64,000 nt of DNA from an uncultured Alphaproteobacteria bacterium (GCA_944392795.1 CALXXX010000037.1:601-64600); one strand, 5' to 3'. Shown: positions 5,196-56,090, counted from the first letter of the stretch. Numbers and translations: made by a program. Notes: generated by a model not told the origin, from the letters alone.

Positions 5196-5843
5196 TTATG
5201 CTTTGAGTTTCCTTAAAAAGGCACCCATTTTTTTATTAAGCTCTATAGCTTCTTTCGGGGCCATTAACCTTTTTCCTTCCGGCGTGATAACCTCTAACGG
5301 AGCAAAAGCAGCGGGATTGGTGATTAACACATTCCATGCTTCCGTTGCATTCTTCTCGGCCATATTCAAATAATTTCGAATAAGCTTTTGTCCGTCTACT
5401 GGAAACTTCTCTGCCTTTAAAGCTGCCGCGAAAGAATTAATAATTTCTTTCTTCGAAGCACGGTACAAATTGATCCTTTTTAATAAGTCTTCACCTTCTT
5501 GACGCACTCTACGATTTTCTTCAATCAAAGCTTCTTCTTCTTTTTCCTGGCATAAATCAATGTATTCTAAAAGCAGTCGACGCCAAAAATCATCTTTTTG
5601 ATAGTACTTATTTAAAGAAACAAGCATTTGACTGACTGTAAAGCTTGTTCCACGAAGTCCCATCAAATAACCTACCATTTGCGCAGTTTCCGTCGCTATA
5701 GTCGGCATAAACGATATACGCATTTTATCATCCAATGCTTCTGGATTCACTGTCAAAGCTGGCGAACCTTTTAATAAGTCTTTATATTTATAAAACTGAC
5801 AGTAAATTTGAAAAATTTTTTGATCTGTAGTTTGTTGGGACAC
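5196..5843 (-). CDS. Hypothetical protein, 215 aa
   Basis: Clean ORF, divergent from the VirB6-like array. No recognisable family. Confidence 0.45.
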   Translation of the reverse strand: MSQQTTDQKIFQIYCQFYKYKDLLKGSPALTVNPEALDDKMRISFMPTIATETAQMVGYLMGLRGTSFTVSQMLVSLNKYYQKDDFWRRLLLEYIDLCQEKEEEALIEENRRVRQEGEDLLKRINLYRASKKEIINSFAAALKAEKFPVDGQKLIRNYLNMAEKNATEAWNVLITNPAAFAPLEVITPEGKRLMAPKEAIELNKKMGAFLRKLKA

Positions 5844-7399: not shown

Positions 7400-8452
7400 G
7401 TGAAAATTATGTTCAAAAATAAAATTAAAGTCTTTACTTTAACGCTCTCTATTTTTTTGATATCAATAGCTCCTGTTTTTGCACAAAGCACACAATCTCA
7501 GACAGCTTCAAATAATCGATTGCAACAAATTCTTAACTTTTTAATGGCCGATCGCGTAAAAGAAGCTGCTGATTTAATGAATTTTACAACTTCATCTATT
7601 TTTATCACTGTCGGAGGACTGATTATTAGTATCGCCCTTCTGTTTATGTCCTCTTCTATCGGCGAATCTTTAGGTGCTGCACCGACGAGTGGAGGCAGCA
7701 AAACCGGCTTTATGTTAGGAGCTGCCGCAGGTGGAGCCATCTTAAAAGGTGGTTCAAAATTAAGTGGAGCAACCTCCGACTGGTTTAAAAGTCGAAAAAA
7801 TAATACGGGAACGAGTACTACGGCAGGAGGAAAAGGTTCTGTCGGTGGACAATCAAGTAAAGGGGCCGGAGCTCCGAATCAATATAAATCTAATTCAAAC
7901 ACTGGAGCAGAAGGAAATAATCAAGGAGGAAGTGGAGGAACAGATACCGCTACTGCGAACACAGGCAATTTTTCTGTTAATCCGCAAGCCTCTTCGGATT
8001 CTAATTTTTCTGTTACAAATGCTCAAATTTCCGGTCTTTCATCACAGAACAAATCAAATATAGGCTCAACCCCTGGAACAAACAAGAATTCATCATCCCC
8101 TGCGACAACAGAGGCACAAAAGACTTCTCCAGCTTCTGCAGATAGTGCAATGAATTCAGCATCGACAAATACAGGAGACAGCAATAAAACAGAAGGACAA
8201 AATACATCAAATACCTCTTCAACAATTCAATCATCCCCTGTCTCATCCATGCCAAAACCAAGCAGCATGTCTGCTCCAAAAGGAATCGATGCACCAACAT
8301 CTATGGCGGCTCCTAGTGGAATGGCGGCTCCTAGTGGAATGGCAGCCCCTGCCGGAATGGCGGCTCCTTCCAGCCCTCGTTCCTCAGAAGAGATTTCTTC
8401 TAAAATAAAAGAAACTGCTCAAAAAGAAACAGGAGAAATTACAGGGAAATAA
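7400..8452 (+). CDS. Secreted or membrane-anchored Gly/Ser/Thr/Ala-rich protein, 350 aa (possible pilin-like N-terminus plus low-complexity tail)
   Basis: Signal peptide ending VFAQ, one hydrophobic helix (SIFITVGGLIISIALLFMSS), then about 250 aa of G/S/T/N low complexity ending in tandem MAAPSGMAAPSGMAAPAGMAAPS repeats (DNA repeat 8297-8370). It starts 4 nt after the upstream VirB6-like stop. Confidence 0.45.
   Translation: MKIMFKNKIKVFTLTLSIFLISIAPVFAQSTQSQTASNNRLQQILNFLMADRVKEAADLMNFTTSSIFITVGGLIISIALLFMSSSIGESLGAAPTSGGSKTGFMLGAAAGGAILKGGSKLSGATSDWFKSRKNNTGTSTTAGGKGSVGGQSSKGAGAPNQYKSNSNTGAEGNNQGGSGGTDTATANTGNFSVNPQASSDSNFSVTNAQISGLSSQNKSNIGSTPGTNKNSSSPATTEAQKTSPASADSAMNSASTNTGDSNKTEGQNTSNTSSTIQSSPVSSMPKPSSMSAPKGIDAPTSMAAPSGMAAPSGMAAPAGMAAPSSPRSSEEISSKIKETAQKETGEITGK
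8297..8370 (+). repeat. Tandem 21-nt direct repeats (about 3.5 copies) encoding MAAPSG units
   Basis: aatggcggctcctagtgg aatggcggctcctagtgg aatggcagcccctgccgg aatggcggctcc seen directly. Confidence 0.6.
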
Positions 8453-8459
8453 GCCACAA

Positions 8460-9716
8460 ATGAAAAAGGTTTTTTCATATCTAAAAAATAAACCTTTCTG
8501 CCTCTTGATAATGGCGGCTGTCTTATTTTTATCCTCTTGCGGCATGGATGTTGAAGTTGATATCGTCAAAGCTCAGGAGGATATGAATTCGACAAAAAGC
8601 TGTTGGACTTGTCAATTGTTTACTATTGTTTTCAACACAGGAGCATCTATTGCTACAAATGCTTTTGATAGTATAAAAAATTTAGCTTGGGGACTTTTAG
8701 CGGTTGGATTAGTCATCTATCTTTGTCTACGAACACTTTCTTTATTCTTAAGCATGCGGCTTCCTGATCTGCCGAATTATTGGATTTCTATCACAACCAA
8801 GCTAGGAAAAGGAGGCCTTGTTTCCATTTTTTTATTAAGTTCCAGTCATATGTGGGAACTGATTAATACAATTATAGCACCGATTATTACGGTTTTTGTT
8901 CGTCTCTCATTTATGATTTTAAATTTAAATTTTCCAACTCGTGTTGCTACATCAACAACGGTTGGCTCTACTTTTATAAGCGGACCAGGCTTACCTGCTG
9001 AGATCGGAGCACAATTAGAAGATTTGGTCTATCGTTCAACTGTTGCCTTAAATATTGGACGAGCTTTAGGCCTTCGAATGATGATGCTTTCTGATTTTAC
9101 CGGCTTCATTATCGGTTTAATCATTATTGGAATTTTCTTTATGCTTTTACTTTTCTTCCCAATGTATTTAATTGATGCATTGGTGCGAATTATATTTGTT
9201 ATTATCCTTTTTCCTATCTTATTGGTCGCTTGGGTTTTCTCGGTCACAGAAAAATACTTTAAAACAGCTTGGAACATGCTGATCGGCGGATTAGCTCAAT
9301 TATTTATTTCCTGTGTTTTTATTGCTTTACTTGTCTCGACAATAGAAGCCTTTACTCAAATGCGTGGTTATAACATTATTCTTAATCCAACCTATCAAAA
9401 CACGAACCCTGATGTTTTACGTGAAATGTCCCGAATGTCCATCTCGGCCTTATCCTTTATCGTGATGGCTTTCTATTTATATAACTTATCAAAGCACCTA
9501 ACTGAAATTTCAGGCTTTTTAACAAACTCATCTCAAACTTCCATGGTCGGGGATTTTACCCGTCGGCTCAAACAATTAGCAATTGCTGCTGTTGCAGCAA
9601 CTATAGCTATTGTTGCCGCTTCTGTCGGTGCTGCACCAGTAACGGCTGTTATGAAAAAGAAAGCTTTGGATGAAGCGCAAAAAGCAGCTAAAAGTGATAA
9701 AAATAGCGGAGGGTAA
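8460..9716 (+). CDS. VirB6/TrbL-like membrane protein (paralog 2), lipoprotein-type signal
   Basis: N-terminal LFLSSCG lipobox-like signal, then polytopic. Conserved CWTCQLF and LIDALVRIIFVIILFPILLVAWVFSVTEKYFKTAWNMLIGG blocks shared with paralogs 1 and 3. Confidence 0.55.
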   Translation: MKKVFSYLKNKPFCLLIMAAVLFLSSCGMDVEVDIVKAQEDMNSTKSCWTCQLFTIVFNTGASIATNAFDSIKNLAWGLLAVGLVIYLCLRTLSLFLSMRLPDLPNYWISITTKLGKGGLVSIFLLSSSHMWELINTIIAPIITVFVRLSFMILNLNFPTRVATSTTVGSTFISGPGLPAEIGAQLEDLVYRSTVALNIGRALGLRMMMLSDFTGFIIGLIIIGIFFMLLLFFPMYLIDALVRIIFVIILFPILLVAWVFSVTEKYFKTAWNMLIGGLAQLFISCVFIALLVSTIEAFTQMRGYNIILNPTYQNTNPDVLREMSRMSISALSFIVMAFYLYNLSKHLTEISGFLTNSSQTSMVGDFTRRLKQLAIAAVAATIAIVAASVGAAPVTAVMKKKALDEAQKAAKSDKNSGG

Positions 9717-9718
9717 AA

Positions 9719-12238
9719 ATGTTTAAGCATATTTCAATCACTCTTCTGCTTATTTTAGTATTAGCTTTAATCTATTTTTTCCCAGGAGCAGATTACATCC
9801 CTTATATTTGGATTGTTGCTTTACCACTCATTATTATCCTTCTAGGACTTGGGATTTATAAAACATACACCTTAAAAAAAGGAAAATATATTTTATTTTT
9901 AAGCTTGTTTATTTCTTCATTTCTTCTAGCCGCTCCTTCAATTGCACAAGCTCAAACATATCGAATTTCACAAGAACGTCTTCAAGAAGCTCAGTTAATC
10001 ATAGAAGAAGTAGAGCGCATTCCTCTTAATGACAGAACACGAGAACAACAAGAAAAATTAGAAAAAGCTCGAGAGGATTATACACAAGCAATGAAAGAGC
10101 GCTTAGGTCGTGGCTCAAAAGCGTGCCCGACACCTAAACAACTTTTGTTGGAATATCAAGAAGATTGTTGGACTTGTGATATTGTTTATTTGATCGTTGA
10201 AAGTATGGATAAAGTCATTACAACTTTCTATAAACAATTAGAAGAACAGCATCTTCCTTTAATATTATTAGCTATTGGCGGCTTATTTTGGCTTGTTTTT
10301 CGAACACTCCGCCTTTTCCTAACATGGGGAATGGGTGATATTGGTTCATATTTTACAGATGTTTTAAAACGCATTTTATTGTTGATTTTTTTATCTGCCA
10401 TTTTATGGACACCTTATAAAGATGTATTAAACATTTTTATTACGCCTATTTTTACTTTTTCTGCGGGTCTAACTCAATCCTTGAGCTCTATTGAAGCATC
10501 AATAGAAACACCACAAAGTACGCCTCAGGTTAATGTTGAAATCTATCGTTCTGTTTTAGGAACACAACCACCTCAGCCGACTTATTGTCAAAACTTAAAT
10601 GCAGAATCAGCCTCTCCAACTGATGAACGCGTATCTCGTGTCTTACAATATCAAGCCAGCATTCAAGACAGAGCTCTACCAACATCAGTGCGAGATTCTC
10701 TCCTCTGTATCGTTCAAAGTATTTATCAAATCACTGTTCCTCCAACTGTCGCCGGACAATATTTAATGTGTATGTCTCAAACCCAAGGAGCGATTTCTTT
10801 CCCAACACGCTTAACCCCCATTATCAAATTACCAGACTTTTCTGTTTGGTTTGCTTCTTGGTTCATTATAGCTGCTTTTTTCCTATTATCTGCCGTTTTC
10901 CCATTCTTCTTAGTCGATTCTTTTTTCAGAATAGGTATTGTTCTGTTATTAATGCCATTCTTTATCGTAACCGCGGCTTTTCCTTCTACACGTGCTTATA
11001 CTAAAAGAGCTTTTGATGTCCTCATTTCGTCTCTTATTAATTTCTTTATGATTTCTTTGATTTTAGTCTTACTGATACAAATGTTCTATACATTAATGGG
11101 ACCGACGGCAACGACATTAGCAGAACTTCTAGCAAAACAAGATTACTTAGGTCTAAGTAATACTTTCGGATGGGCTGGGGGCGGTCGTATGATTTTTGCA
11201 AGTATTGCTATGCTTTTAATCGGTTTTTACCTACTTTCTACTACAGCAAGAATGATTCAAATGATGACGGGTATTGGTTTATCTCAAGGTGGAGGTGTCG
11301 CAGCTTTATTTGCCCCAGTTGGATTGGCTGGAGCAGGTCTGAGTTTAACTAAAGAAATTTATGATGAACCTTGGGAACCATCTAAACATAAAGCCTATCT
11401 ATTAAGAATGGATGCTCAAAGGCGTGGCTATACAGATGCAAAAGGCGTTCGGCATGGCCTCAGCAAATATCATACATTAGAAGCGCGTTCTCGCGGGATG
11501 CGTCGTTTTATCCCTAAAGCTGCCGATAAAGCTGGAAATAAAGTAGAAAAAACCTCTAATACAAGCGCTTTATTAACTGAAAAAGGAATAAAACTGACAG
11601 GAAAAGAAATTAATCAAGGAACTAAGTTCATTTTCTTTAACAGCGGACATTTCTTAGGGCAATTTGGAATGAAAATGATAGGAACAACTGCTTCTGCCTG
11701 GTATCTTGCACCGTTTACTCTTGCTGCTGCAACTGTTGCTTTTACCGGAGCAGGCATCATGTATGCTCTGGGCGGAACCTTTATTATGATAAATAATGTT
11801 GCTAACTATGTCATTCGAAAAACTGCGAAAAAAACGATTCAAACAACCGGAAAAGTAACTTCTTATGCGATAAAAAAATCTGCACGAGCAATTGCATATA
11901 ATAAATATTTAACAAAAACAATGGCTTTAGTTCAAAAGCCTGTTCAATTTACAACTTCTTTAATTGCTATTCCTATCACCTCTATTTATACACGTACATT
12001 AGAACAAGATCCAACTCGTAGAGCTCAACAAACTGCTTCCGATATAAAACAACGGGCGAATCGAATTGCAAGGCCTGAAGATACACATACTTGGCGTGAT
12101 CTTTTCGATGAAATTCGTGAAAATGCACATCAAACGCGTTCAAATTTGGATGACAACATGCGAGCTAAAAACAAACATTCTAAAGATTTTGTCAAGAGTA
12201 ATTGGCGCTTTATTCGCCGAACTGGACGCTTCTTCTAA
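9719..12238 (+). CDS. VirB6/TrbL-like membrane protein (paralog 3), 839 aa with long C-terminal extension
   Basis: Start overlaps the upstream stop (TAAAAATG context). Conserved CWTCDIVY and FFLVDSFFRIGIVLLLMPFFIVTAAFPSTRAYTKRAFDVLIS blocks. Extra C-terminal TM helices and a basic tail, as seen in extended VirB6 paralogs of Rickettsiales-type systems. Confidence 0.55.
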   Translation: MFKHISITLLLILVLALIYFFPGADYIPYIWIVALPLIIILLGLGIYKTYTLKKGKYILFLSLFISSFLLAAPSIAQAQTYRISQERLQEAQLIIEEVERIPLNDRTREQQEKLEKAREDYTQAMKERLGRGSKACPTPKQLLLEYQEDCWTCDIVYLIVESMDKVITTFYKQLEEQHLPLILLAIGGLFWLVFRTLRLFLTWGMGDIGSYFTDVLKRILLLIFLSAILWTPYKDVLNIFITPIFTFSAGLTQSLSSIEASIETPQSTPQVNVEIYRSVLGTQPPQPTYCQNLNAESASPTDERVSRVLQYQASIQDRALPTSVRDSLLCIVQSIYQITVPPTVAGQYLMCMSQTQGAISFPTRLTPIIKLPDFSVWFASWFIIAAFFLLSAVFPFFLVDSFFRIGIVLLLMPFFIVTAAFPSTRAYTKRAFDVLISSLINFFMISLILVLLIQMFYTLMGPTATTLAELLAKQDYLGLSNTFGWAGGGRMIFASIAMLLIGFYLLSTTARMIQMMTGIGLSQGGGVAALFAPVGLAGAGLSLTKEIYDEPWEPSKHKAYLLRMDAQRRGYTDAKGVRHGLSKYHTLEARSRGMRRFIPKAADKAGNKVEKTSNTSALLTEKGIKLTGKEINQGTKFIFFNSGHFLGQFGMKMIGTTASAWYLAPFTLAAATVAFTGAGIMYALGGTFIMINNVANYVIRKTAKKTIQTTGKVTSYAIKKSARAIAYNKYLTKTMALVQKPVQFTTSLIAIPITSIYTRTLEQDPTRRAQQTASDIKQRANRIARPEDTHTWRDLFDEIRENAHQTRSNLDDNMRAKNKHSKDFVKSNWRFIRRTGRFF

Positions 12239-12350
12239 AAAGATTAGTCCTTTATTTTCGGGGAAAATACATTTTTTTTATTTTTTGTCTATTTTCTTAC
12301 AACAAAATCTGTTATAACTAAGAAAAAGAATAAAAAGGAGTAAAAACTAA

Positions 12351-13292
12351 ATGGAAGAAATTATATTCCCAAATCAAATTCGGATGATACGACGGACACG
12401 TGGCAAAACAATGAAAGAAATTGCCGGTATCTTAGGGGTCAGTTTATCCGCTATTAGTAAAATAGAAAAAGGTTATCGCCGTATTGATGAAGAGCAATTA
12501 GATAAAATTTCATCTTTTTTGGACTGTCCTAAGGAAAGTATTTTTGTTTATGAAAAAACTTCACAACCTGAAGTTTTGCAAGCTTGGCAAAAAGAACAAG
12601 ACCGCCGGAAACAAATTAACGAAAAAAGTGGTTTAAAAACATTGGGCGCTGGACTGAGATATATTCGCGGAGAAAAGATGCTCACATTGCAAGATGTAGC
12701 CAAAGGAGCCGGCTTAACGCTTTCGGTTTATCATCGCATTGAAATGGGACAGCGAGAGGTAACAGAAGAACAATTTAAAAAAATTGCACATGCTCTTGGT
12801 TTTACAACAGAAACATTACAGCTTCAAATCTATGAATTAGATATGGCCGGAACTTTGCAAGAGTTCAAAAAAACAGGAAAACCAGGTATTTTTCATCCTA
12901 AAGGTGGGTATAATGATCTTCCTCTCAAGTCTTTAAGTATTAATAAAAAAATACTGGTTCATCAGGCGACTGTAAATAATGATACGTTTGTTCTCAATGA
13001 TCAAACATTTGAAATGGATGCTTCTCTTCCTTTTGCTCAAGAATTAACCGGAATAAAAGTGAATACTTCTTTATCTTTCGGTAGTTTTTCTGCCACATAT
13101 GTTTTGGCTACTCATGCCCCATTAAAAGAAGGAGAACCTGTCTTATTTCAACAAAAAGAGAATATTTTCTTACCCGGAACTTTTTCTCAACAAAACAATA
13201 AAACTGTATTTAAGGCCTCAGATGGAACAGAGCAGATCTTAACAGAAAATGATTTAAAAAAGCTTTCTAAAATAGTTGCTCTTTATTTTTAA
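12351..13292 (+). CDS. Tandem helix-turn-helix (XRE-family) transcriptional regulator with C-terminal domain
   Basis: Two HTH_3-like segments: TMKEIAGILGVSLSAISKIEKGYRRID and LTLQDVAKGAGLTLSVYHRIEMGQREVT. AAAAGGAG RBS 8 nt upstream of the ATG. Confidence 0.7.
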   Translation: MEEIIFPNQIRMIRRTRGKTMKEIAGILGVSLSAISKIEKGYRRIDEEQLDKISSFLDCPKESIFVYEKTSQPEVLQAWQKEQDRRKQINEKSGLKTLGAGLRYIRGEKMLTLQDVAKGAGLTLSVYHRIEMGQREVTEEQFKKIAHALGFTTETLQLQIYELDMAGTLQEFKKTGKPGIFHPKGGYNDLPLKSLSINKKILVHQATVNNDTFVLNDQTFEMDASLPFAQELTGIKVNTSLSFGSFSATYVLATHAPLKEGEPVLFQQKENIFLPGTFSQQNNKTVFKASDGTEQILTENDLKKLSKIVALYF

Positions 13293-17804: not shown

Positions 17805-18794
17805 CTATGTAATCGCTGTCACAGCACGAATATTGCCGTTACGATTAATCTGAACGACCCGCAGCTTATCCCTCATTTCTCGCAGCGTTTTATCTCTATC
17901 TATTGTTGGTGTTGTTCTCATAATACGAGCAACAAATGCTTTATACGCCTCTTCAGGATTCTCCGCATGAATCGTAGCAAAACAGTTTTCATGACCAGAG
18001 CCCATTAATTCCCAAATAGCACTGGCATTTGATGTTGAAATCTCTCCTCCGATAATCGCATCAGGAGTAAAACGAACGACTAAGTCAATAACACGTGGAT
18101 AAGTAAATCCATTCGTTTGATCTGTACGAGGTAAAACAATATGCACACGATTCTTATGTGGAACAATAAGTTCCCGCGTATCCTCAATCGTTAAAATACG
18201 TTTATGCTCATCCACTAATTTAATCATATTATTCAAAAATGTCGTTTTACCTGTTGCAGTTCCACCGCTGATAAGAATATGCTCTCCTTTACGTATTGAA
18301 AGCAACAAGCGATCATAAGGATCATCAGGATCTTCTACATTTGCTAACTTACTTAATGGACGTAGACGTTCCCCTTGCTCCAAATTAAAGTCTTTAAACT
18401 CTATTCCTACATCTTCTTTATAAACACGAATAGCAAGAGCAACACCACCCGTTAAATCATCATTATCATACATGACGTTACGACCACTAATACCCGTAAA
18501 ACGATGACCTCCGGGAAGTGTAGCATAAACAACCGGAGTTCCTTCTGTCGGTTCAAAAGAATAATCATAACTGTTTGCTATAATATAAAGAATATTATTT
18601 AAATATTCTCGTGTTAGCTTAGGATCAATCTGTTCAACCCACGGATATGCTCTTTTACCTCGCAAACGAAGCCAAATAGAACCTGGATGATCTACTGCAA
18701 CCTCTTCTACATTATCTTGTGTATACCAATAGGATAAAGGTCGTAATGCCGACTCCAAAACTTTATAGGTTTCGGAAATGGATAACTCTGGCAT
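17805..18794 (-). CDS. virB11: VirB11-family type IV secretion ATPase
   Basis: 329 aa. Walker A ISGGTATGKTTFLN and the conserved VirB11/CagAlpha-like fold signature (…RVIDLVVRFTPDAIIGGEI…). It is the last gene of the virB8-virB11 operon. Confidence 0.85.
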   Translation of the reverse strand: MPELSISETYKVLESALRPLSYWYTQDNVEEVAVDHPGSIWLRLRGKRAYPWVEQIDPKLTREYLNNILYIIANSYDYSFEPTEGTPVVYATLPGGHRFTGISGRNVMYDNDDLTGGVALAIRVYKEDVGIEFKDFNLEQGERLRPLSKLANVEDPDDPYDRLLLSIRKGEHILISGGTATGKTTFLNNMIKLVDEHKRILTIEDTRELIVPHKNRVHIVLPRTDQTNGFTYPRVIDLVVRFTPDAIIGGEISTSNASAIWELMGSGHENCFATIHAENPEEAYKAFVARIMRTTPTIDRDKTLREMRDKLRVVQINRNGNIRAVTAIT

Positions 18795-18806
18795 TTGCGG
18801 CTCCTT

Positions 18807-38312: not shown

Positions 38313-39508
38313 TATTTTTTCTCTATAACGGCTTTTTTCCTTAAATCTTGAAGCTTCTCATTCGATTTTTGCTCCATTTTTTCCATTTCAAGTTGCTGTT
38401 TTATAACCTCGAGTTTAGGCAAAACAGAAACAACTCGTTTATCACATTTCATTAAAAATAAATCGAAATCTTCTGCTTCAATAGGACCTATGATTTTTTT
38501 CATCGGAGCATCTTTTAGTAACTCATATAATTGATCCGGCATCCGAGGAACAGGCATTTCAGGCATCAGACCAGACCCTTTTAATCCTTCACGCATTGCT
38601 AAAGATGTAAAAGATTGAGGATTTCCATCTGCCTTGGCAAGCTGATCCGAAAAACGAGCCGCTTCTCCCTTAGGAAGAAGAAACTGCGCAACACTCCAAG
38701 CTTCAACTTCTGTTGATGTCAACGCTTTTTGTTTATCTCTCATTAAAATCAAATAATAACCTTCTTTGCCTTCTATGGGCTTTGACATCTGTCCGGGTTC
38801 CATTTGTTCTAAAATGCCATCAATAGCCTTTTCTAAACTTCCTTTTGAAACCCAACCTAAATCGCCTCCTATCGAAGCAGTTTTTCCTTTAGAAAATTGA
38901 ACTGCCAATTCAGGAAAAACCTCGCCTTTTACAATGCGATCGAACAAACTTTGAGCTTGTTCTTCTGCGGCTTTTTTATCTGTACCAAAAGGAACATAAA
39001 TCTCTGCCAACAAATAACTCGGCTTCATCATCTCTTTTTTTATCTTTTCTAGTCGAGCTTTCACTTCCTGTTCCGTTACAACCGGAGGTTTCTCATTTTC
39101 TGAACGAAGTACCTTTAGCCAAAGTATATCAGACGTCATCTGATTTTCTAAGGTATCGAAAGAAATATCTGATTCCTTTAACAGGCGTTGAAGAGAACCA
39201 GGTTCCATTCCATTTTGCTTTTCCAAAAAAGAAATCCCTTCTTCTACTTCACCTTCTTCTAAAATAATCCCTTTACTGGCTGCTTCCTGCTTTTTTACTT
39301 TTTCTAAAATAAGCGTCTCAAGAACTTGAGCTTTAGTTTCCTCTGTGACTGGCGTCTTCATCAGAGCATGCATCATCTTTGATCGCATATCAACATCATA
39401 ATCCGATATTACTTCATCATTTACTGTTGCAATAATCTCAAACGCCCGAGCTGAAAAGGATAGACTTAAACTGAGCCCGATTATAGCAAAAATTATTTTT
39501 TTCATCAT
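38312..39508 (-). CDS. surA: SurA-like periplasmic chaperone / parvulin-type peptidyl-prolyl isomerase
   Basis: Signal peptide, a SurA N-domain and a parvulin domain (…GGDLGWVSKGSL…GYYLILM…). It lies downstream of lptD as in conserved lptD-surA synteny, and overlaps rsmA by 1 nt. Confidence 0.8.
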   Translation of the reverse strand: MMKKIIFAIIGLSLSLSFSARAFEIIATVNDEVISDYDVDMRSKMMHALMKTPVTEETKAQVLETLILEKVKKQEAASKGIILEEGEVEEGISFLEKQNGMEPGSLQRLLKESDISFDTLENQMTSDILWLKVLRSENEKPPVVTEQEVKARLEKIKKEMMKPSYLLAEIYVPFGTDKKAAEEQAQSLFDRIVKGEVFPELAVQFSKGKTASIGGDLGWVSKGSLEKAIDGILEQMEPGQMSKPIEGKEGYYLILMRDKQKALTSTEVEAWSVAQFLLPKGEAARFSDQLAKADGNPQSFTSLAMREGLKGSGLMPEMPVPRMPDQLYELLKDAPMKKIIGPIEAEDFDLFLMKCDKRVVSVLPKLEVIKQQLEMEKMEQKSNEKLQDLRKKAVIEKK

Positions 39509-42500
39509 ACTGCTCCCAATGTTTTCAAGATCATACGCACATAAAAAGAAGTATCGCCTTTATAATCTCGATCTTTCGTAAACTCTTTCTCTGCCGAAAA
39601 AAGTAAGGTAATGCATTCATTTTCAAATTGCAAGCCTCCTCCGGCTTCTATCGGACCGCCATCAACAGCTAAATCATAACGGTAATATCCATATGCCGAC
39701 CAAGATGGTGTTAAACGAGAATTTATTTGTCCAAAAATTTCTTCACGATCTTTTAGATAATTTTTGACTTTATTCTCCTGACTAGCCTGCATGTAAAAAT
39801 AACCTAATGTAACTTTAAAAGGAGCTCTTCCGGCATATAAACTGACCTCTGACATCTCCTGACTTAGATTATCTTGATTTAAACGAAAACGATAATTCAT
39901 ACCAAAATCTTTAAGCTTCATATTTAAATGACCAACATAAGAAGAAAAATGATTTTCAAAGCCGGCACCTTCCGCAACACTGTTGTCATCACGGAAACGA
40001 TAGGATTGTCCAAACAAAGCGGATACAGATATATTCTTCGGACCATATAATGTCCATTGCATACCATAATTTAAACGAGCACCTGTCTCAACACGATCAT
40101 AGCCCGCATACCGATTAGCAGAGAATAAATTTGTATCATCAAATTCATAATCCAAACTATCCTCGTTAGGAATATTTTTATTACTGCTGTTAGGGCTCCA
40201 TACCCCCATAACGATTGGTTCTAATACTTGACTGTAATTTTCACCTTGTTGCATTAAGGGATATCGAACCTCCATAGACAAATTCGGGTACACTCGATTA
40301 GTATTTTTTGTTTCATCCTCAACCGTTTGAATAGAATAACCATCAAAACGAATACTCGCCTCTGTATTGATAACTGCACCAATTGAAGAAATATAAGGCA
40401 ATCGCAAAGCTTGCAAATATGATAATCGTGTCGATTCAGGTTTTTCATGCCGATAAACCCCTGCACCATTAACCTGTGAAACAGAATATAATCCATTCCA
40501 TAATGGACGCGTTACATACTCATAATTCACTTGAGGTACCTTCGGCATAGAACTATTTTTTACATCAGCTCTCAAATTTTGAAATGCATACATTTTAATA
40601 AACGCATAAGCATTTTCTCCGAAATGCTCTAAAGCTGCATCACTTTGTATCCAGGGCGCTTGATCATCAACATTATCAATTGGATATCGCCTAAAATAAG
40701 TATCATCACTTACACGAAAGTAAGTCCCTCGAAAGCGCAACCGATCTGTAATATCATATTCATAATAAGCTTTTATATGACCTTCATTATTGTGATCATC
40801 ATCATTTTGTGTGCCAGAAAAATCAAGTGTTAATCCACTTTCCTGATACAACCCCCGATAACGACCTTGGACCAAAGGAACATGAGAAAAAGAAATCGTT
40901 GGGTTTATGTATAAATCTTGACTATCTGAAATAGCCCAAAAAAAAGGCAGATCAAAACCGGAACCCATTTCAGTCGAACTAGCTAATGCCGGAGTTAAAA
41001 AACCTGTTTTCCGCTTAACCTGAAAATCAGGGTACTCTAAATATGGCCAATAAAAAACAGGAACTCCTTTTAAATTTAAAAAGGCATGTTTATAAACAAA
41101 TTCTTTCTGTTGATAATTGTGAAGAACCTGTCCTGCTCGAAGGCTCCATAGAGGCTTCTCAGGCGAGCAATAAGTACAAGGCGTAAAAAAAACATCCTTA
41201 AAATCCGTTATATTACCTTTATCTGTCCTAGCGACAGATTGAGCCTCAAAAACAGACCCGTCCGCTAATTTCATATGAACTGCTTTAATCAATCCTTCTT
41301 TGATGTCTCCTGTTAAGTCTGCCTCATCAGAAAAAAGTTGAACACCATCAGGACGCGTTAATACAACATTCCCGGTTGCATAAACAGTATCCTTACTCTG
41401 ATCGTATTCAATTTTATCTGCCCGAAAAGTCGAACCTTCCTGTTTTATAATGACATTTCCGGTCGCTGTCAAAATACCGGTTTTCTCATTATAAGAAATC
41501 GTATCTGCCTCAAAAGGAGCTGGAGCATCTTTATGAAGCGTTGTATCAGCAATAAATTGAGGTTCTGCTGCTTCAACAGAAAAAGCTAAGAAGAAAAAAA
41601 CTAAAAAAAGAAGAGAAATCATCTTCTTAGAACGTTTCTGTTGAGGAGATTGTTCTTTAAGAAAATATCCGCGCTTCAATATAATCATTCCGCTCAAAAT
41701 AGGAACTAAAATATTCAATCCCATCAAAAAGAGAAAAAATAAATTTTTTTCGGATAAGTTTTCAAATCCAAGCGCCATTGATTGAATTAAAATAACGGCT
41801 CCTATTGACATATAAATACGTCCGTTTTGTCCTCGCCTGTTGTAATACCCCAACAAAAGAGGTAAAAGACCAATCATTAAATAGACTAATGAATAAAGGG
41901 GTTGCGTTAAGCGTTTAAAAGCCTCCACTTTATACTCTCGAAATTGCGTCTGTGATATCCTTGGATCTGTTGACTTGGCCATCAAAAGACGAACTAAGGG
42001 AAGTTCCTCTTCTCCGGCGGAACGCTCGTTATTTCGGCGACTCTCCTCTAAAACCATGGTATTCTGATCAAAACTTAATGAAGAAAAAATACCTGTCCGA
42101 CGATTATACTCCTGACGTCGACCTTGATGCATCACAATCCGTGGTTCTTCGCCCGTTACATATAATCCATTTTGAGCTACCATCACTATTCTTTTTTCAG
42201 GATCTCGACCATCGTGAATTAAAATTCCTTCCAATTCGCCTGTTGGTTTAAAAGAGCGGACATAAATCGTTATATTACTCGGCAAGTTATTAAACTCACC
42301 TTCTTGAATAACAACATGTGCTAAATCATTCCTGATCTTAAAGCGAAGTTCTTTAAAATGCGTCACAGAATAAGGAACCAACCACAACGTTAAACAATAG
42401 CCTAAAACAACTAAAATTAAGCTCATATAAAAACCGGGCTTCGCCAGCTGCCAGGGAGACATACCAACTGCTTTCATTACAATCAGCTCTCGATCTGCCA

Positions 42501-42741
42501 ATAAACGCTGATACACAAACAAAAGAACAATAAAAAATGCAAGTGGTGTGATAATCGCAATAAAATTCGGTAAAACCAAAAGTGTCAATTGAACAAATAA
42601 ATGAACAGAGACTCCTTTATTAACAATCCAATCAATCATCCGTAAGCTTTGAGATAACCAGATAATTCCCGTCATACCCAAAGCTATCAGCAAAAAACCG
42701 ATGACTAATTGTTTTAAAATATATTTATTTAATGTTTTCAT
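39505..42741 (-). CDS. lptD: Single 1078-aa ORF containing an LptG-like permease (N-terminal ~360 aa) fused in-frame to an LptD/OstA-like LPS-assembly protein (C-terminal ~706 aa, internal ATG at 41622)
   Basis: The N-part has YjgP/YjgQ permease topology (MKTLNKYILKQLVIGF…, six TM helices). After a KQSPQQKRSKKM linker comes an LptD signal peptide (MISLLFLVFFFLAFSVEAAEP), the OstA N-domain (…TGNVIIKQEGSTFRADKIEYD…) and a long beta-barrel region. No stop codon separates the two parts, because the ORF track gives one continuous protein. Confidence 0.7.
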   Translation of the reverse strand: MKTLNKYILKQLVIGFLLIALGMTGIIWLSQSLRMIDWIVNKGVSVHLFVQLTLLVLPNFIAIITPLAFFIVLLFVYQRLLADRELIVMKAVGMSPWQLAKPGFYMSLILVVLGYCLTLWLVPYSVTHFKELRFKIRNDLAHVVIQEGEFNNLPSNITIYVRSFKPTGELEGILIHDGRDPEKRIVMVAQNGLYVTGEEPRIVMHQGRRQEYNRRTGIFSSLSFDQNTMVLEESRRNNERSAGEEELPLVRLLMAKSTDPRISQTQFREYKVEAFKRLTQPLYSLVYLMIGLLPLLLGYYNRRGQNGRIYMSIGAVILIQSMALGFENLSEKNLFFLFLMGLNILVPILSGMIILKRGYFLKEQSPQQKRSKKMISLLFLVFFFLAFSVEAAEPQFIADTTLHKDAPAPFEADTISYNEKTGILTATGNVIIKQEGSTFRADKIEYDQSKDTVYATGNVVLTRPDGVQLFSDEADLTGDIKEGLIKAVHMKLADGSVFEAQSVARTDKGNITDFKDVFFTPCTYCSPEKPLWSLRAGQVLHNYQQKEFVYKHAFLNLKGVPVFYWPYLEYPDFQVKRKTGFLTPALASSTEMGSGFDLPFFWAISDSQDLYINPTISFSHVPLVQGRYRGLYQESGLTLDFSGTQNDDDHNNEGHIKAYYEYDITDRLRFRGTYFRVSDDTYFRRYPIDNVDDQAPWIQSDAALEHFGENAYAFIKMYAFQNLRADVKNSSMPKVPQVNYEYVTRPLWNGLYSVSQVNGAGVYRHEKPESTRLSYLQALRLPYISSIGAVINTEASIRFDGYSIQTVEDETKNTNRVYPNLSMEVRYPLMQQGENYSQVLEPIVMGVWSPNSSNKNIPNEDSLDYEFDDTNLFSANRYAGYDRVETGARLNYGMQWTLYGPKNISVSALFGQSYRFRDDNSVAEGAGFENHFSSYVGHLNMKLKDFGMNYRFRLNQDNLSQEMSEVSLYAGRAPFKVTLGYFYMQASQENKVKNYLKDREEIFGQINSRLTPSWSAYGYYRYDLAVDGGPIEAGGGLQFENECITLLFSAEKEFTKDRDYKGDTSFYVRMILKTLGAV

Positions 42742-42754
42742 AGGCTCTCTTATA

Positions 42755-43675
42755 TCAGATTTTACGCATACCTGACAAGGGATGTTTTGTTTCTACAATT
42801 TTTTTTAATCTATCTTCCAGAACATGTGTGTAAATTTCTGTTGTTGCTATATCAGCATGTCCCAACATTTTTTGAACACTTCTTAAGTCTGCATCATGCG
42901 CAATGAGATGAGAAGCAAAAGAATGCCGAATAACATGAGGTGACACACGACTCGGATCAATTCCCGCTTGAAGAGCTATTTTTTTTAATTCTTTAAAAAA
43001 GGCATCTCGTGTCATATAACCTTGTTTTGACTTTGATGGAAATAACCACTTAGATGTTCGACCTCTTTTTAAATATCTTTCACGTTCGATCAACCATTTT
43101 TCAATAGCTCTCCGAGCAGGATCATCTAAGGGAACTAAACGTTGTTTGTTTCCTTTTCCAACAATTTCTATCATTGTATTATTGTGCAGAACAGCAGCTA
43201 GTGGCAAAGATACGAGTTCACTTACGCGCATTCCCGAGGCATATAATATTTCCAGCATTGTTTTTAAACGAACATCTTTTTCCCCAGCTGCCTGTAATAA
43301 AGAAAGAATTTCTTCTTCTGACAAATATTTAGGAAGTGCTTTTCCTGTCTTTGGACTGTCCACATTATCCGTTGGTAAATCATCTCTGAAATTCTCAGAG
43401 TATAAAAAACGAAAGAACTCTCGAAGAGCAGATAAACGGCGAGCTTGCGTTTTAGCAGATAATCCATTTTTAACAATCAAATGCATATAATCTGCTACAT
43501 CATCGCCTTCAGCTTTTTCTAAAATGACATGCCTTGTATTTAAAAAAGCTTCAAAATCTTCTAAATCACTTTGATAGGCATGTACCGTTCTGGGTGAAGC
43601 TCCTCTTTCTGCAACAATCACCTCTAAAAAATTTTCAATCCACCGATTCATCAATGAATGAGCTCCAAAACCCAA
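42755..43675 (-). CDS. xerD: Site-specific tyrosine recombinase XerD/XerC family
   Basis: 306 aa. The catalytic region …HVIRHSFASHLIAHDADLRSVQKMLGHADIATTEIYTHV gives the R-H-R-Y signature. The xerD…aroK neighbourhood is typical of alphaproteobacterial chromosomes. Confidence 0.75.
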   Translation of the reverse strand: MGFGAHSLMNRWIENFLEVIVAERGASPRTVHAYQSDLEDFEAFLNTRHVILEKAEGDDVADYMHLIVKNGLSAKTQARRLSALREFFRFLYSENFRDDLPTDNVDSPKTGKALPKYLSEEEILSLLQAAGEKDVRLKTMLEILYASGMRVSELVSLPLAAVLHNNTMIEIVGKGNKQRLVPLDDPARRAIEKWLIERERYLKRGRTSKWLFPSKSKQGYMTRDAFFKELKKIALQAGIDPSRVSPHVIRHSFASHLIAHDADLRSVQKMLGHADIATTEIYTHVLEDRLKKIVETKHPLSGMRKI

Positions 43676-54045: not shown

Positions 54046-54615
54046 CTATCCTCTTTGTTGTTTGCGCAATTTTAAGTTTCGACGAACCAGCTCGGCTTCT
54101 TCATCAAACTTCTGTTGCTCTTTCGGTGACAAATTTAAATGAGAAATACCCTCTTTAGCAAGTTTTTTTTGTCGAGCCGGTGTTTCCACAATTAAAGTGA
54201 CGGGACCATCATTTAAAATTGAAACTTGCATATCTGCTTGAAAAATACCATTCGCCGTCGGAACACCTAATTTTCTTACTGCTTCGATAAAAGCTTCATA
54301 TAATGCTTTTGCTTTAGTGGGCTCACCTGCTCCGGTAAATGACGGACGACGCCCCTTTTCACAATCTCCGAACAAAGTAAACTGAGAAATAATCAACATA
54401 CTTCCCTTTTCATCCAGAAGAGAACGGTTCATCTTGGCATTTTCATCTTCAAAAATACGCAAGTTAACAAGCTTTTGTGCCATCCATTCGACATCTGTCA
54501 GCTCATCCTCATGTCCGACGCCCAATAAAACGGTCAATCCTTTACCAATAGAACCGACTTCTTCTCCTTTTACAGAAACAGAAGAAGATAAAACACGTTG
54601 CACAACAGCTTTCAT
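54046..54615 (-). CDS. dtd: D-aminoacyl-tRNA deacylase with basic C-terminal extension
   Basis: MKAVVQRV…SQFTLFGD…GRRPSF… Dtd fold. An extra ~40-aa Lys/Arg/Gln-rich tail. Confidence 0.78.
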
Positions 54616-56090
54616 GAATCTTCCCTGTTAATTAAATATTGTGTTAATAACTGAACACCGAAACCTGTGGCTCCTTTCGGAGAACAAGGTTTGTCAGCTG
54701 TCAGCCATCCAACACTGGCAATATCCAAGTGTGCCCATTTAACACCTTCTGCAATAAAGTTCTTCAAAAACATAGCTGCCGTCGCAGAACCTGCTTCACC
54801 ACCTTTGGCGATATTAGATAAATCTGCTATATCGGAAGATAACATTTTTTCATATTCCGGATGTAAAGGTAATTCCCAAATCTTATCCATAACTGTTTCT
54901 TCCGATGCCTTTTTCAAAGCAGTTCCCAGACTATTATCATTTGTAAATAAGCCAGCATACTGACTACCGAAAACATATTTCATAACGCCCGTCAAAGTCG
55001 CAATATCTATCATAATTTGAGGATGATATGTCTCTTGCCCATACCACATGGCATCAGCCAGTATCAATCGTCCTTCAGCATCTGTATTACTGATCTCAAC
55101 CGTTTTTCCGTTCATCGCCTGAACAACATCATCCGTATGAGCGGCTTTAGAAGACAGCATATTTTCTACCAAGGGAACAATTCCAACTATATTTTGCTTT
55201 AATCCCAACTCAGAAATAGCACGCATCGTCCCGACAACCGCTGCTCCACCTGCCATATCATACTTCATATGTGTTAATCCAGCCGTTGGTTTTAAATTCA
55301 TGCCACCACTATCAAAACAAACGCCCTTACCCACTAAAACAACAGGAGCTTCATCCTTTTTCCCTTTCATATACTCCATCATCAAAAGATAGGGAGCTTC
55401 CGAAGCACCTTGAGCTACTGTTAAAACTAAATTCATTCCAAGCTTTTGCATTTGCTTTTTATCTAAAACTTTTAATGCAACATTTTTCATTTTTAGCGTT
55501 TTAACGGCCTCAACGAATTCTCGAGGAGGAAGCATATTCGCCGGTTCAGAGGCTAAATCTCTTGCCTCATACACGCCATTCAAAACTGAAAAAAGGCTGG
55601 TAAAGGCATTCTCATCCGCCTCGACTTCAGAAGACAAAATACGAACAAGTTCTACTTCAGGGGTTTCCTTTTTCTTTGTTTTATAAACATCAAATGAATA
55701 AGTTCCCAACCCTAAACAAAAAGCCAAATATGCTGCGGCAGTTCCCGTTTTTACTTTAACTTCTGATAAACCACTTGTGCAAATCATGACTTCTTTTTGA
55801 CGAACTTTTTTCAAAACAGAAGCCAACGAACCTCCGACTGTTTGAAGCCATGTCTCTACACCGCCTTCTACTTTACCGACACCAACCAAGGTCACATTCA
55901 AGCCCGTCGGCAATAAAACTGTACAAAACTCACCCTTACAACCATTAAAATTCTGAGCGGTTATCGCACGTGCCAGTGTTTCTTCTTTATCTTCTCGAGC
56001 CAATCGAGGTGGAACACCCATCCCCTCTAAAACAGGCGCAATCAATGTCCCCTGTAAAGCACCCTCAGAATTTTTAAACTCAAATTTCAT
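54612..56090 (-). CDS. pepA: Leucyl aminopeptidase (M17)
   Basis: [13 protein letters not shown] and DIATLTG M17 active-site motifs. 492 aa. Confidence 0.85.

Follow-up and report, generated by a model that had tools for sequence, protein, structure and literature searches.

A conserved lptF::lptD gene fusion in uncultured host-gut Alphaproteobacteria, probably encoding a polyprotein cleaved at an internal signal peptide

Lipopolysaccharide transport (Lpt) depends on seven proteins that together form an essential machine, which is also a target for antibiotics. To our knowledge, its parts have always been described as separate proteins meeting across two membranes. In a 64,000-nucleotide stretch of DNA from an uncultured Alphaproteobacteria bacterium (GCA_944392795.1 CALXXX010000037.1:601-64600), hereafter the window, the permease LptF and the outer-membrane protein LptD are encoded on the minus strand by one open reading frame (ORF), which starts with ATG at 42741, ends at 39505 and contains no internal stop codon. 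Comparison with related genomes indicates that this lptF::lptD fusion is genuine and evolutionarily conserved in a clade of uncultured host-gut Alphaproteobacteria. We consider it likely that the fusion encodes a polyprotein whose internal signal peptide is the site at which signal peptidase I cuts the precursor. The Lpt parts themselves are ordinary and it is the architecture that is unusual: a single natural gene, kept for long in a gut lineage, joins the inner-membrane end of the pathway (LptF) to its outer-membrane end (LptD). The fused gene is organized as follows, in window coordinates:

39505..42741, minus strand: whole fused lptF::lptD ORF, 1078 amino acids plus stop, 123.4 kDa

41671..42741, minus strand: LptF permease module, residues 1-357 (supported by PF03739, TIGR04407, outgroup identity, AlphaFold2 and hydropathy)

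41623..41670, minus strand: basic linker GYFLKEQSPQQKRSKK, residues 358-373, predicted to be cytoplasmic; n-region of the internal signal peptide

41569..41622, minus strand: internal signal peptide core MISLLFLVFFFLAFSVEA, residues 374-391; h-region and c-region V-E-A

41594-41600 and 41603-41609, plus strand (T7 in the coding strand): two A7 homopolymers, within Leu and Phe codons of the h-region

39508..41568, minus strand: predicted mature LptD, residues 392-1078, 78.4 kDa

41182-41529, minus strand: LptD N-terminal beta-jellyroll, residues ~405-520

39526-41154, minus strand: LptD beta-barrel, residues ~530-1072

The linker reads ...KRGYFLKEQSPQQKRSKKM. An earlier, sequence-only reading of the window had reported the uninterrupted 1078-residue frame with its permease and LptD parts, together with the linker, an internal ATG at 41622 and the two A7 runs, and we recovered all of these, the single stop-free ORF carrying the Pfam domains of both proteins. 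At a GC content of 38.2%, 1078 consecutive codons would be free of stops by chance with a probability of about 1e-32, but the 36-codon junction on its own has about a 9% chance of staying open. The real support for the fusion therefore comes from the comparison with other genomes.

An identical protein is encoded in another sample of the same strain, on a contig of an independent ENA assembly (ERZ24773405); the contig shows 13 mismatches to the window over 10,453 bases. A protein search retrieved at least 119 full-length fused homologues (1060-1098 amino acids, 39-91% identity), all with both Pfam domains, and a scan of one genome per species yielded 73 related loci (35-92% identity), all of them from human, ruminant or rabbit gut metagenome-assembled genomes (MAGs) labelled Alphaproteobacteria. 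A single alignment crosses the junction in 71 of these 73 loci; of the other two, one is cut by a contig end and one (L072) is split. A stop codon ending the permease gene in related genomes, which the sequence-only reading had regarded as decisive against a fusion, does occur in this set, but only in the nested lineage of L072. Fused forms are also present in more distant lineages, at 29% and 55% GC (P0313/L079, P0276/L080 and P0242), and in the alignment both halves of the protein are under purifying selection, each with many invariant residues. Among ruminant MAGs (RGIG), 38 high-quality reduced genomes of uncultured Alphaproteobacteria (1.59 Mb) have been assigned to the order RF32 (PMC8199421). 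The clade bearing the fusion is probably this reduced-genome order.

Some irregularities in the comparison set deserve mention. Locus L056 has a frameshift within the LptD barrel (positions ~8637-8640, residue ~883), either an assembly error or a pseudogene, and in L067 the LptD_N region contains 266 masked positions (N) in one run (5480-5546). In four cases (L009, L020, L038 and L065), the gene-bearing contigs are filed as 'Holdemanella biformis' or 'uncultured Lactobacillales' MAGs, which are probably mis-binned or mislabelled assemblies.

The permease half had initially been taken for LptG. Profile and similarity scores instead identify it as the LptF orthologue. Indeed, residues 6-355 match the 353-position LptF_LptG profile PF03739 (1.3e-67; 228.8 bits versus a cut-off of 27.9), and the NCBIfam models separate the two families clearly (227.2 bits for LptF, TIGR04407, versus 83.6 bits for LptG, TIGR04408), the former score falling slightly below the NCBI equivalog cut-off of 230. 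Likewise, in blastp comparisons with an unfused Rhodospirillales MAG used as outgroup (L074), LptF is matched at 39% identity (6e-79) and LptG marginally (3e-5), and LptF chains from the PDB match residues 4-301 with scores above those of LptG chains. An AlphaFold2 model of the full protein, built on 120 homologues (mean predicted local distance difference test, pLDDT, 84.5), places helices at residues 2-42, 46-82, 96-143, 264-297, 306-332 and 334-357 and strands at 150-230. This corresponds to six transmembrane (TM) helices with a periplasmic beta-jellyroll (residues ~150-230) between TM3 and TM4, in agreement with hydropathy; D83 and E85, in the presumed coupling helix, are invariant. We also considered an LptF/LptG recombinant created by deletion of lptG. 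Since TM1-3, the jellyroll and TM4-6 are each LptF-like, the permease is not such a chimera over these three parts; its last ~40 residues are too few to assign to either family.

The second half is a complete LptD. Pfam places PF03968 (LptD_N) at residues 411-450 and PF04453 (LptD) at residues 659-1014 (3.6e-53). LptD chains from the PDB match residues 405-1066, the alignment with 5iv9_A covering residues 405-933 (1.3e-27) and others reaching residue 1066. The AlphaFold2 model is all-beta from residue 414 to 1072, with pLDDT mostly above 80.

Between the two modules, the junction appears from its pattern of conservation to evolve as a signal peptide rather than as a structural helix of the transporter. 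Junction statistics were drawn from an alignment of 120 sequences, conservation being the frequency of the commonest residue. After TM6, every aligned sequence has a K/R-rich stretch, then 8-19 uncharged and mostly hydrophobic residues (median 13.5), then a small-x-Ala motif. The n-region or linker has a median of five K+R and zero D+E. At position -1, Ala is found in 114 of 120 sequences, and at -3, A, S, V or T in 113 of 120, position -2 being free. Conservation is 0.53-0.74 in TM1-6, 0.19 in the linker, 0.29 in the h-region and 0.95 for the -1 Ala. This pattern would be expected from continued cutting by signal peptidase I. As no part of the junction other than the -1/-3 motif is strongly conserved, cleavage is likelier than an uncleaved anchor. 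The signal peptidase I site is probably V389-E390-A391/A392 (41569/41568), which gives AEPQFIADTTLHK as the predicted N-terminus of mature LptD. Position +1 is not Cys, so that there is no lipobox. In the AlphaFold2 model, the seventh helix (residues 366-384) has low pLDDT and residues 385-404 are disordered; no confident packing of this helix against LptF was found in the model, and thus no structural role can be argued for it. The segment also resembles the N-terminal signal peptides encoded by neighbouring genes of the window, for example that of SurA (...SFSARA/FE). The LptD signal peptide is thus internal (residues ~369-391), behind 357 residues of LptF, and is N-terminal only in the split loci L072, L081, L083 and L085.

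These split relatives bear on how the fusion arose. In a library of 1.8 billion proteins, the closest unfused LptDs are all encoded immediately downstream of an LptF orthologue, and no lptG intervenes, which contradicts the idea that the fused neighbours were lptG and lptD. They are arranged as follows:

L081 (GCA_017507765.1): split, 8-nucleotide lptF/lptD overlap with a GGAG Shine-Dalgarno (SD) motif, in the synteny aroK-xerD-lptF-lptD-surA-rsmA-folD as in the window

L083/L084: split, ATGA overlap between lptF and lptD

L085: split, 1-nucleotide overlap between lptF and lptD, 31% GC

L086: split, 40-nucleotide gap between lptF and lptD, 66% GC

The split LptDs of L081, L083 and L085 carry canonical N-terminal signal peptides that are homologous to the internal segment. 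Since lptF and lptD overlap in the nearest split relatives, adjacency and translational coupling preceded the fusion. A small indel would then have merged the frames of the two overlapping genes, the clade of the window having lost the lptF stop. L072 illustrates the opposite step. A 1-nucleotide deletion relative to its sisters (AAAGTG to AAATGA) makes the lptF TGA overlap an lptD ATG located 10 nucleotides after an AAGGAG SD motif, and its LptD start, MKGKYFSALLLSFMTFSAQA/F, aligns with the internal segment of the fused sisters. In our phylogenies, which are neighbour-joining trees only, L072 is nested inside the fused clade as sister to L049. The state thus appears to have flipped more than once, the fusion having arisen or reverted repeatedly. 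That split forms exist and work means that function does not depend on a covalent link, which fits a cleaved precursor.

A simple loss of the stop between lptG and lptD, from an lptF-lptG-lptD order, was rejected as the route to the fusion: the nearest relatives already have lptF beside lptD. That order exists in the outgroup L074 (lptF-lptG-lptD-surA-pdxA-rsmA), where lptG and lptD lie in the same frame, separated by a single TGA and two codons (8117-8260). The tblastn alignment crosses this stop, and the loss of one stop codon there would produce an LptG-LptD fusion.

We propose the following course of events. The ribosome would make a single 123-kDa precursor, whose six LptF helices would enter the inner membrane with the end of TM6 on the cytoplasmic side. 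The linker, being basic, would stay on that side in line with the positive-inside rule, and the former LptD signal peptide would act as a seventh helix (N-in/C-out) that starts Sec-dependent translocation of the ~690-residue LptD part. A cut by signal peptidase I after A391 (V-E-A/A) would free ordinary mature LptD, to be handed to BAM by SurA, the product of the next gene, whose start overlaps the end of the fusion, and LptF would retain an extra C-terminal helix (45.1 kDa). The outcome would be standard Lpt parts whose 1:1 ratio is obligatory. The advantage may be that both ends of the bridge are synthesized in equimolar amounts, and the arrangement suggests selection for equal amounts of LptF and LptD. 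Alternatively, the fusion may be nearly neutral, made harmless by the internal signal peptide.

Several points weigh against a cleaved polyprotein. The argument for cleavage is drawn entirely from sequence conservation, and an internal signal peptide behind six TM helices is an unusual context for a signal peptidase I substrate. The window genome has an in-frame ATG (Met374) at the right place, where some independent initiation is possible. Finally, neither the 64-kb window nor the flanks (6-10 kb) of about 80 related loci yielded a second PF03739 gene. In tblastn searches of the window and all loci with the outgroup LptG, only the LptF module was matched, and a database search with the LptG of L074 returned only Rhodospirillales LptG (at least 59% identity). 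As the lptF-lptD arrangement also occurs in a relative with 66% GC, lptG most probably lies simply elsewhere in the genome.

The fusion may also be more than a harmless merger. LptD would then be exported co-translationally through the translocon of LptF and the bridge assembled in cis at a fixed 1:1 ratio, a reading that we regard as unlikely. Within it, the nascent LptF/LptC/LptA bridge could receive the N-terminal jellyroll of LptD directly; LptG may have been lost, with two LptF subunits forming the permease as a homodimer, and the transporter may make use of the retained seventh helix. In a stronger variant, part of the protein possibly stays uncleaved as a covalent tether from inner to outer membrane.

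Unlikely, too, is separate translation of LptD from Met374, the long ORF being a mere read-through by-product. This start (ATG 41622-41620) encodes the first residue of the signal peptide core, directly before the hydrophobic stretch; in 32 of 66 related loci, the linker or n-region contains an in-frame ATG, and the split relatives show that separate translation is workable. However, even the homologues most similar to the window protein (91% and 86% identity) have other residues in place of Met374, among them R, K, V and L, and a peptide starting there would lack the basic n-region, which lies upstream (KRSKK-M). No SD-like motif was found upstream of ATG 41622 in the window (-17 to -3); the AAGAAG that the sequence-only reading had pointed to as a possible ribosome-binding site stands immediately before the ATG, leaving no spacer, and does not resemble GGAGG. 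Of 66 fused loci, 12 have no in-frame ATG, GTG or TTG from TM6 to the hydrophobic core, 39 have such a start there with no SD-like motif and 15 have one with a 4-5-nucleotide SD-like match, whereas the 5' ATG of the fused gene is preceded by an SD-like motif in 52 of 66. As the internal start is not conserved and is absent from 12 loci, the long protein must be the source of LptD in many species at least.

A true fusion with an internal TM segment resembling a signal peptide had been anticipated, and this much stands, given the independent assembly and the 71 genomes of 73. That the segment persists as an uncleaved signal anchor, tethering the inner-membrane transporter to the outer-membrane LptD barrel, we regard as very unlikely. 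In its favour, one reading frame is conserved over the whole clade, and cleavage is itself deduced from sequence. LptF is, in addition, the subunit that feeds the bridge ending at LptD; in LptB2FGC structures, it is the LptF jellyroll that feeds this periplasmic bridge. But in an anchor, nothing would maintain small-x-Ala at 94-95% against the drift of the remaining segment, and split lineages nested among fused ones show that the linkage can be dispensed with. Moreover, the model leaves about 15 disordered residues from the helix to the LptD jellyroll, which from known dimensions we estimate to be too short for the barrel to span a normal periplasm and arrive at the outer membrane. It is this short flexible segment, together with a cleavage motif whose conservation would go unexplained, that makes the tether doubtful.

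Lastly, we reject the idea that the fusion is a pseudogene or stems from a sequencing or assembly error, namely an indel in the A7/T7 runs. Two 7-nucleotide homopolymers do lie close to the junction, and L056 (frameshift within the barrel) and L072 (1-nucleotide difference at the junction) show such irregularities. But the runs lie inside h-region codons downstream of the linker and of Met374, so that they cannot have removed the lptF stop. The independent assembly encodes the identical protein, each half is strongly conserved, and the fusion recurs at 29-55% GC, with differing junction sequences, and in 71 of 73 related genomes.

In the canonical pathway of E. coli (LptB2FGC-LptA-LptDE), lptF, lptG and lptD are separate genes. 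Compared with this system, both modules are full-length in the window and the alphaproteobacterial lptD-surA-rsmA neighbourhood is kept, whereas permease and barrel form one ORF, the LptD signal peptide is internal, lptG is not present at the locus and pdxA is missing between surA and rsmA. The split lptF-lptD pairs (L081, L083/L084, L085 and L086) share with the fusion its gene order and LptF-type permease, with no lptG between, but differ in that a stop ends lptF and lptD has its own start (with an SD motif in L081 and L072). Within the Alphaproteobacteria, LptB, LptC, LptF and LptG of Brucella abortus are distinct and essential (PMC9938171). In the open-access literature searched, no description of an LptF-LptD or LptG-LptD fusion was found, which is not proof of absence.

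By analogy, the closest mechanistic precedent known to us is FbcH of Bradyrhizobium japonicum, reportedly a cytochrome b-c1 polyprotein that was shown experimentally (Thony-Meyer, Hennecke et al., 1989-1991) to be split at an internal signal peptide into two subunits of the same complex. In both cases, one ORF encodes a polytopic inner-membrane protein followed by a periplasm-facing partner with its own internal signal peptide. However, both FbcH products stay in the inner membrane, whereas LptD must go on to the outer membrane and its processing is predicted. The resemblance is mechanistic and not familial, as the window protein (domains LptF and LptD) has no cytochrome b/c1 homology. A Tat-dependent membrane protein offers a further likeness, in that an internal signal peptide behind TM helices directs export of a C-terminal domain, but there the route is Tat rather than Sec and the domain is not released; the window junction has no twin-arginine motif. 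The lptF::lptD product would be a rare bacterial membrane polyprotein with an internal signal peptide. It also offers a natural setting in which to ask if co-translational export behind a polytopic protein is feasible for a 26-strand outer-membrane protein. NCBI records name members of the fused family either 'LptF' or 'LptD', an inconsistency that the fusion accounts for, and pathway reconstructions for these gut bacteria would thus wrongly score one protein as missing.

The fusion lies between two genes of a conserved neighbourhood:

38312..39508, minus strand: surA, whose start overlaps the TGA of the fusion (ATGA)

42755..43675, minus strand: xerD, directly upstream of the fusion, 13-nucleotide gap

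In the periplasm, LptD is normally brought to BAM by the chaperone SurA. The synteny aroK-xerD-lptF(::)lptD-surA-rsmA is conserved and common to the split relatives, and lptF-lptD, fused or split, is also followed by surA in L078, L081, L085 and L086. In L074, pdxA (11724-12758) lies between surA and rsmA; it is absent from this place in the window (36932-38312), where surA is followed directly by rsmA, and pepA (54612-56090) lies about 12 kb from lptF. The missing pdxA and the distant pepA are consistent with a genome that has been reduced and rearranged. Small yggT/DUF genes, as in L081, probably occupy the 560 bp between folD and rsmA. An Rfam scan of the window from 36 to 49 kb found no RNA elements. 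In Proteobacteria, lptC, lptA and lptB usually precede rpoN. In L085 (2954-5100), rpoN and hpf lie 4-7 kb upstream of lptF, and the genes just before rpoN are not recognizable as lptC, lptA or lptB; the rest of the Lpt system may also be rearranged in these lineages.

Elsewhere in the window, a type IV secretion cluster occupies 17805-34481 on the minus strand, with the following genes:

17805-18794, minus strand: VirB11-like ATPase (Pfam)

18807-26138, minus strand: giant 2443-residue ORF with a C-terminal TrbI/VirB10 domain (residues 2094-2287)

26168-27838, minus strand: CagX/VirB9 (Pfam)

27931-28695, minus strand: VirB8 (Pfam)

32010-34481, minus strand: 823-residue ORF with a type IV secretion system domain (Pfam)

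Ahead of its TrbI/VirB10 domain, the 2443-residue ORF carries at least 16 'beta-flower' repeats (PF21785, 2e-117), PF21784, DUF3659 and an RHS repeat; by its domain content, it is an unusually elaborated VirB10. Adjoining the cluster, about 12 large ORFs (198-839 residues) between 2218 and 17762 have almost no Pfam match at 1e-5, the only exception being a double helix-turn-helix protein at 12351-13292. This run may be an effector or mobile island. Finally, prfB (release factor 2, with PCRF and RF-1 domains; 59375-60509, plus strand) has a classical programmed +1 frameshift site, with its ATG at 59375, an SD-like AAGGAGG at 59431-59437 and CTTTGAC at 59441-59447. For this reason, the ORF listing shows only the downstream frame, from a TTG.

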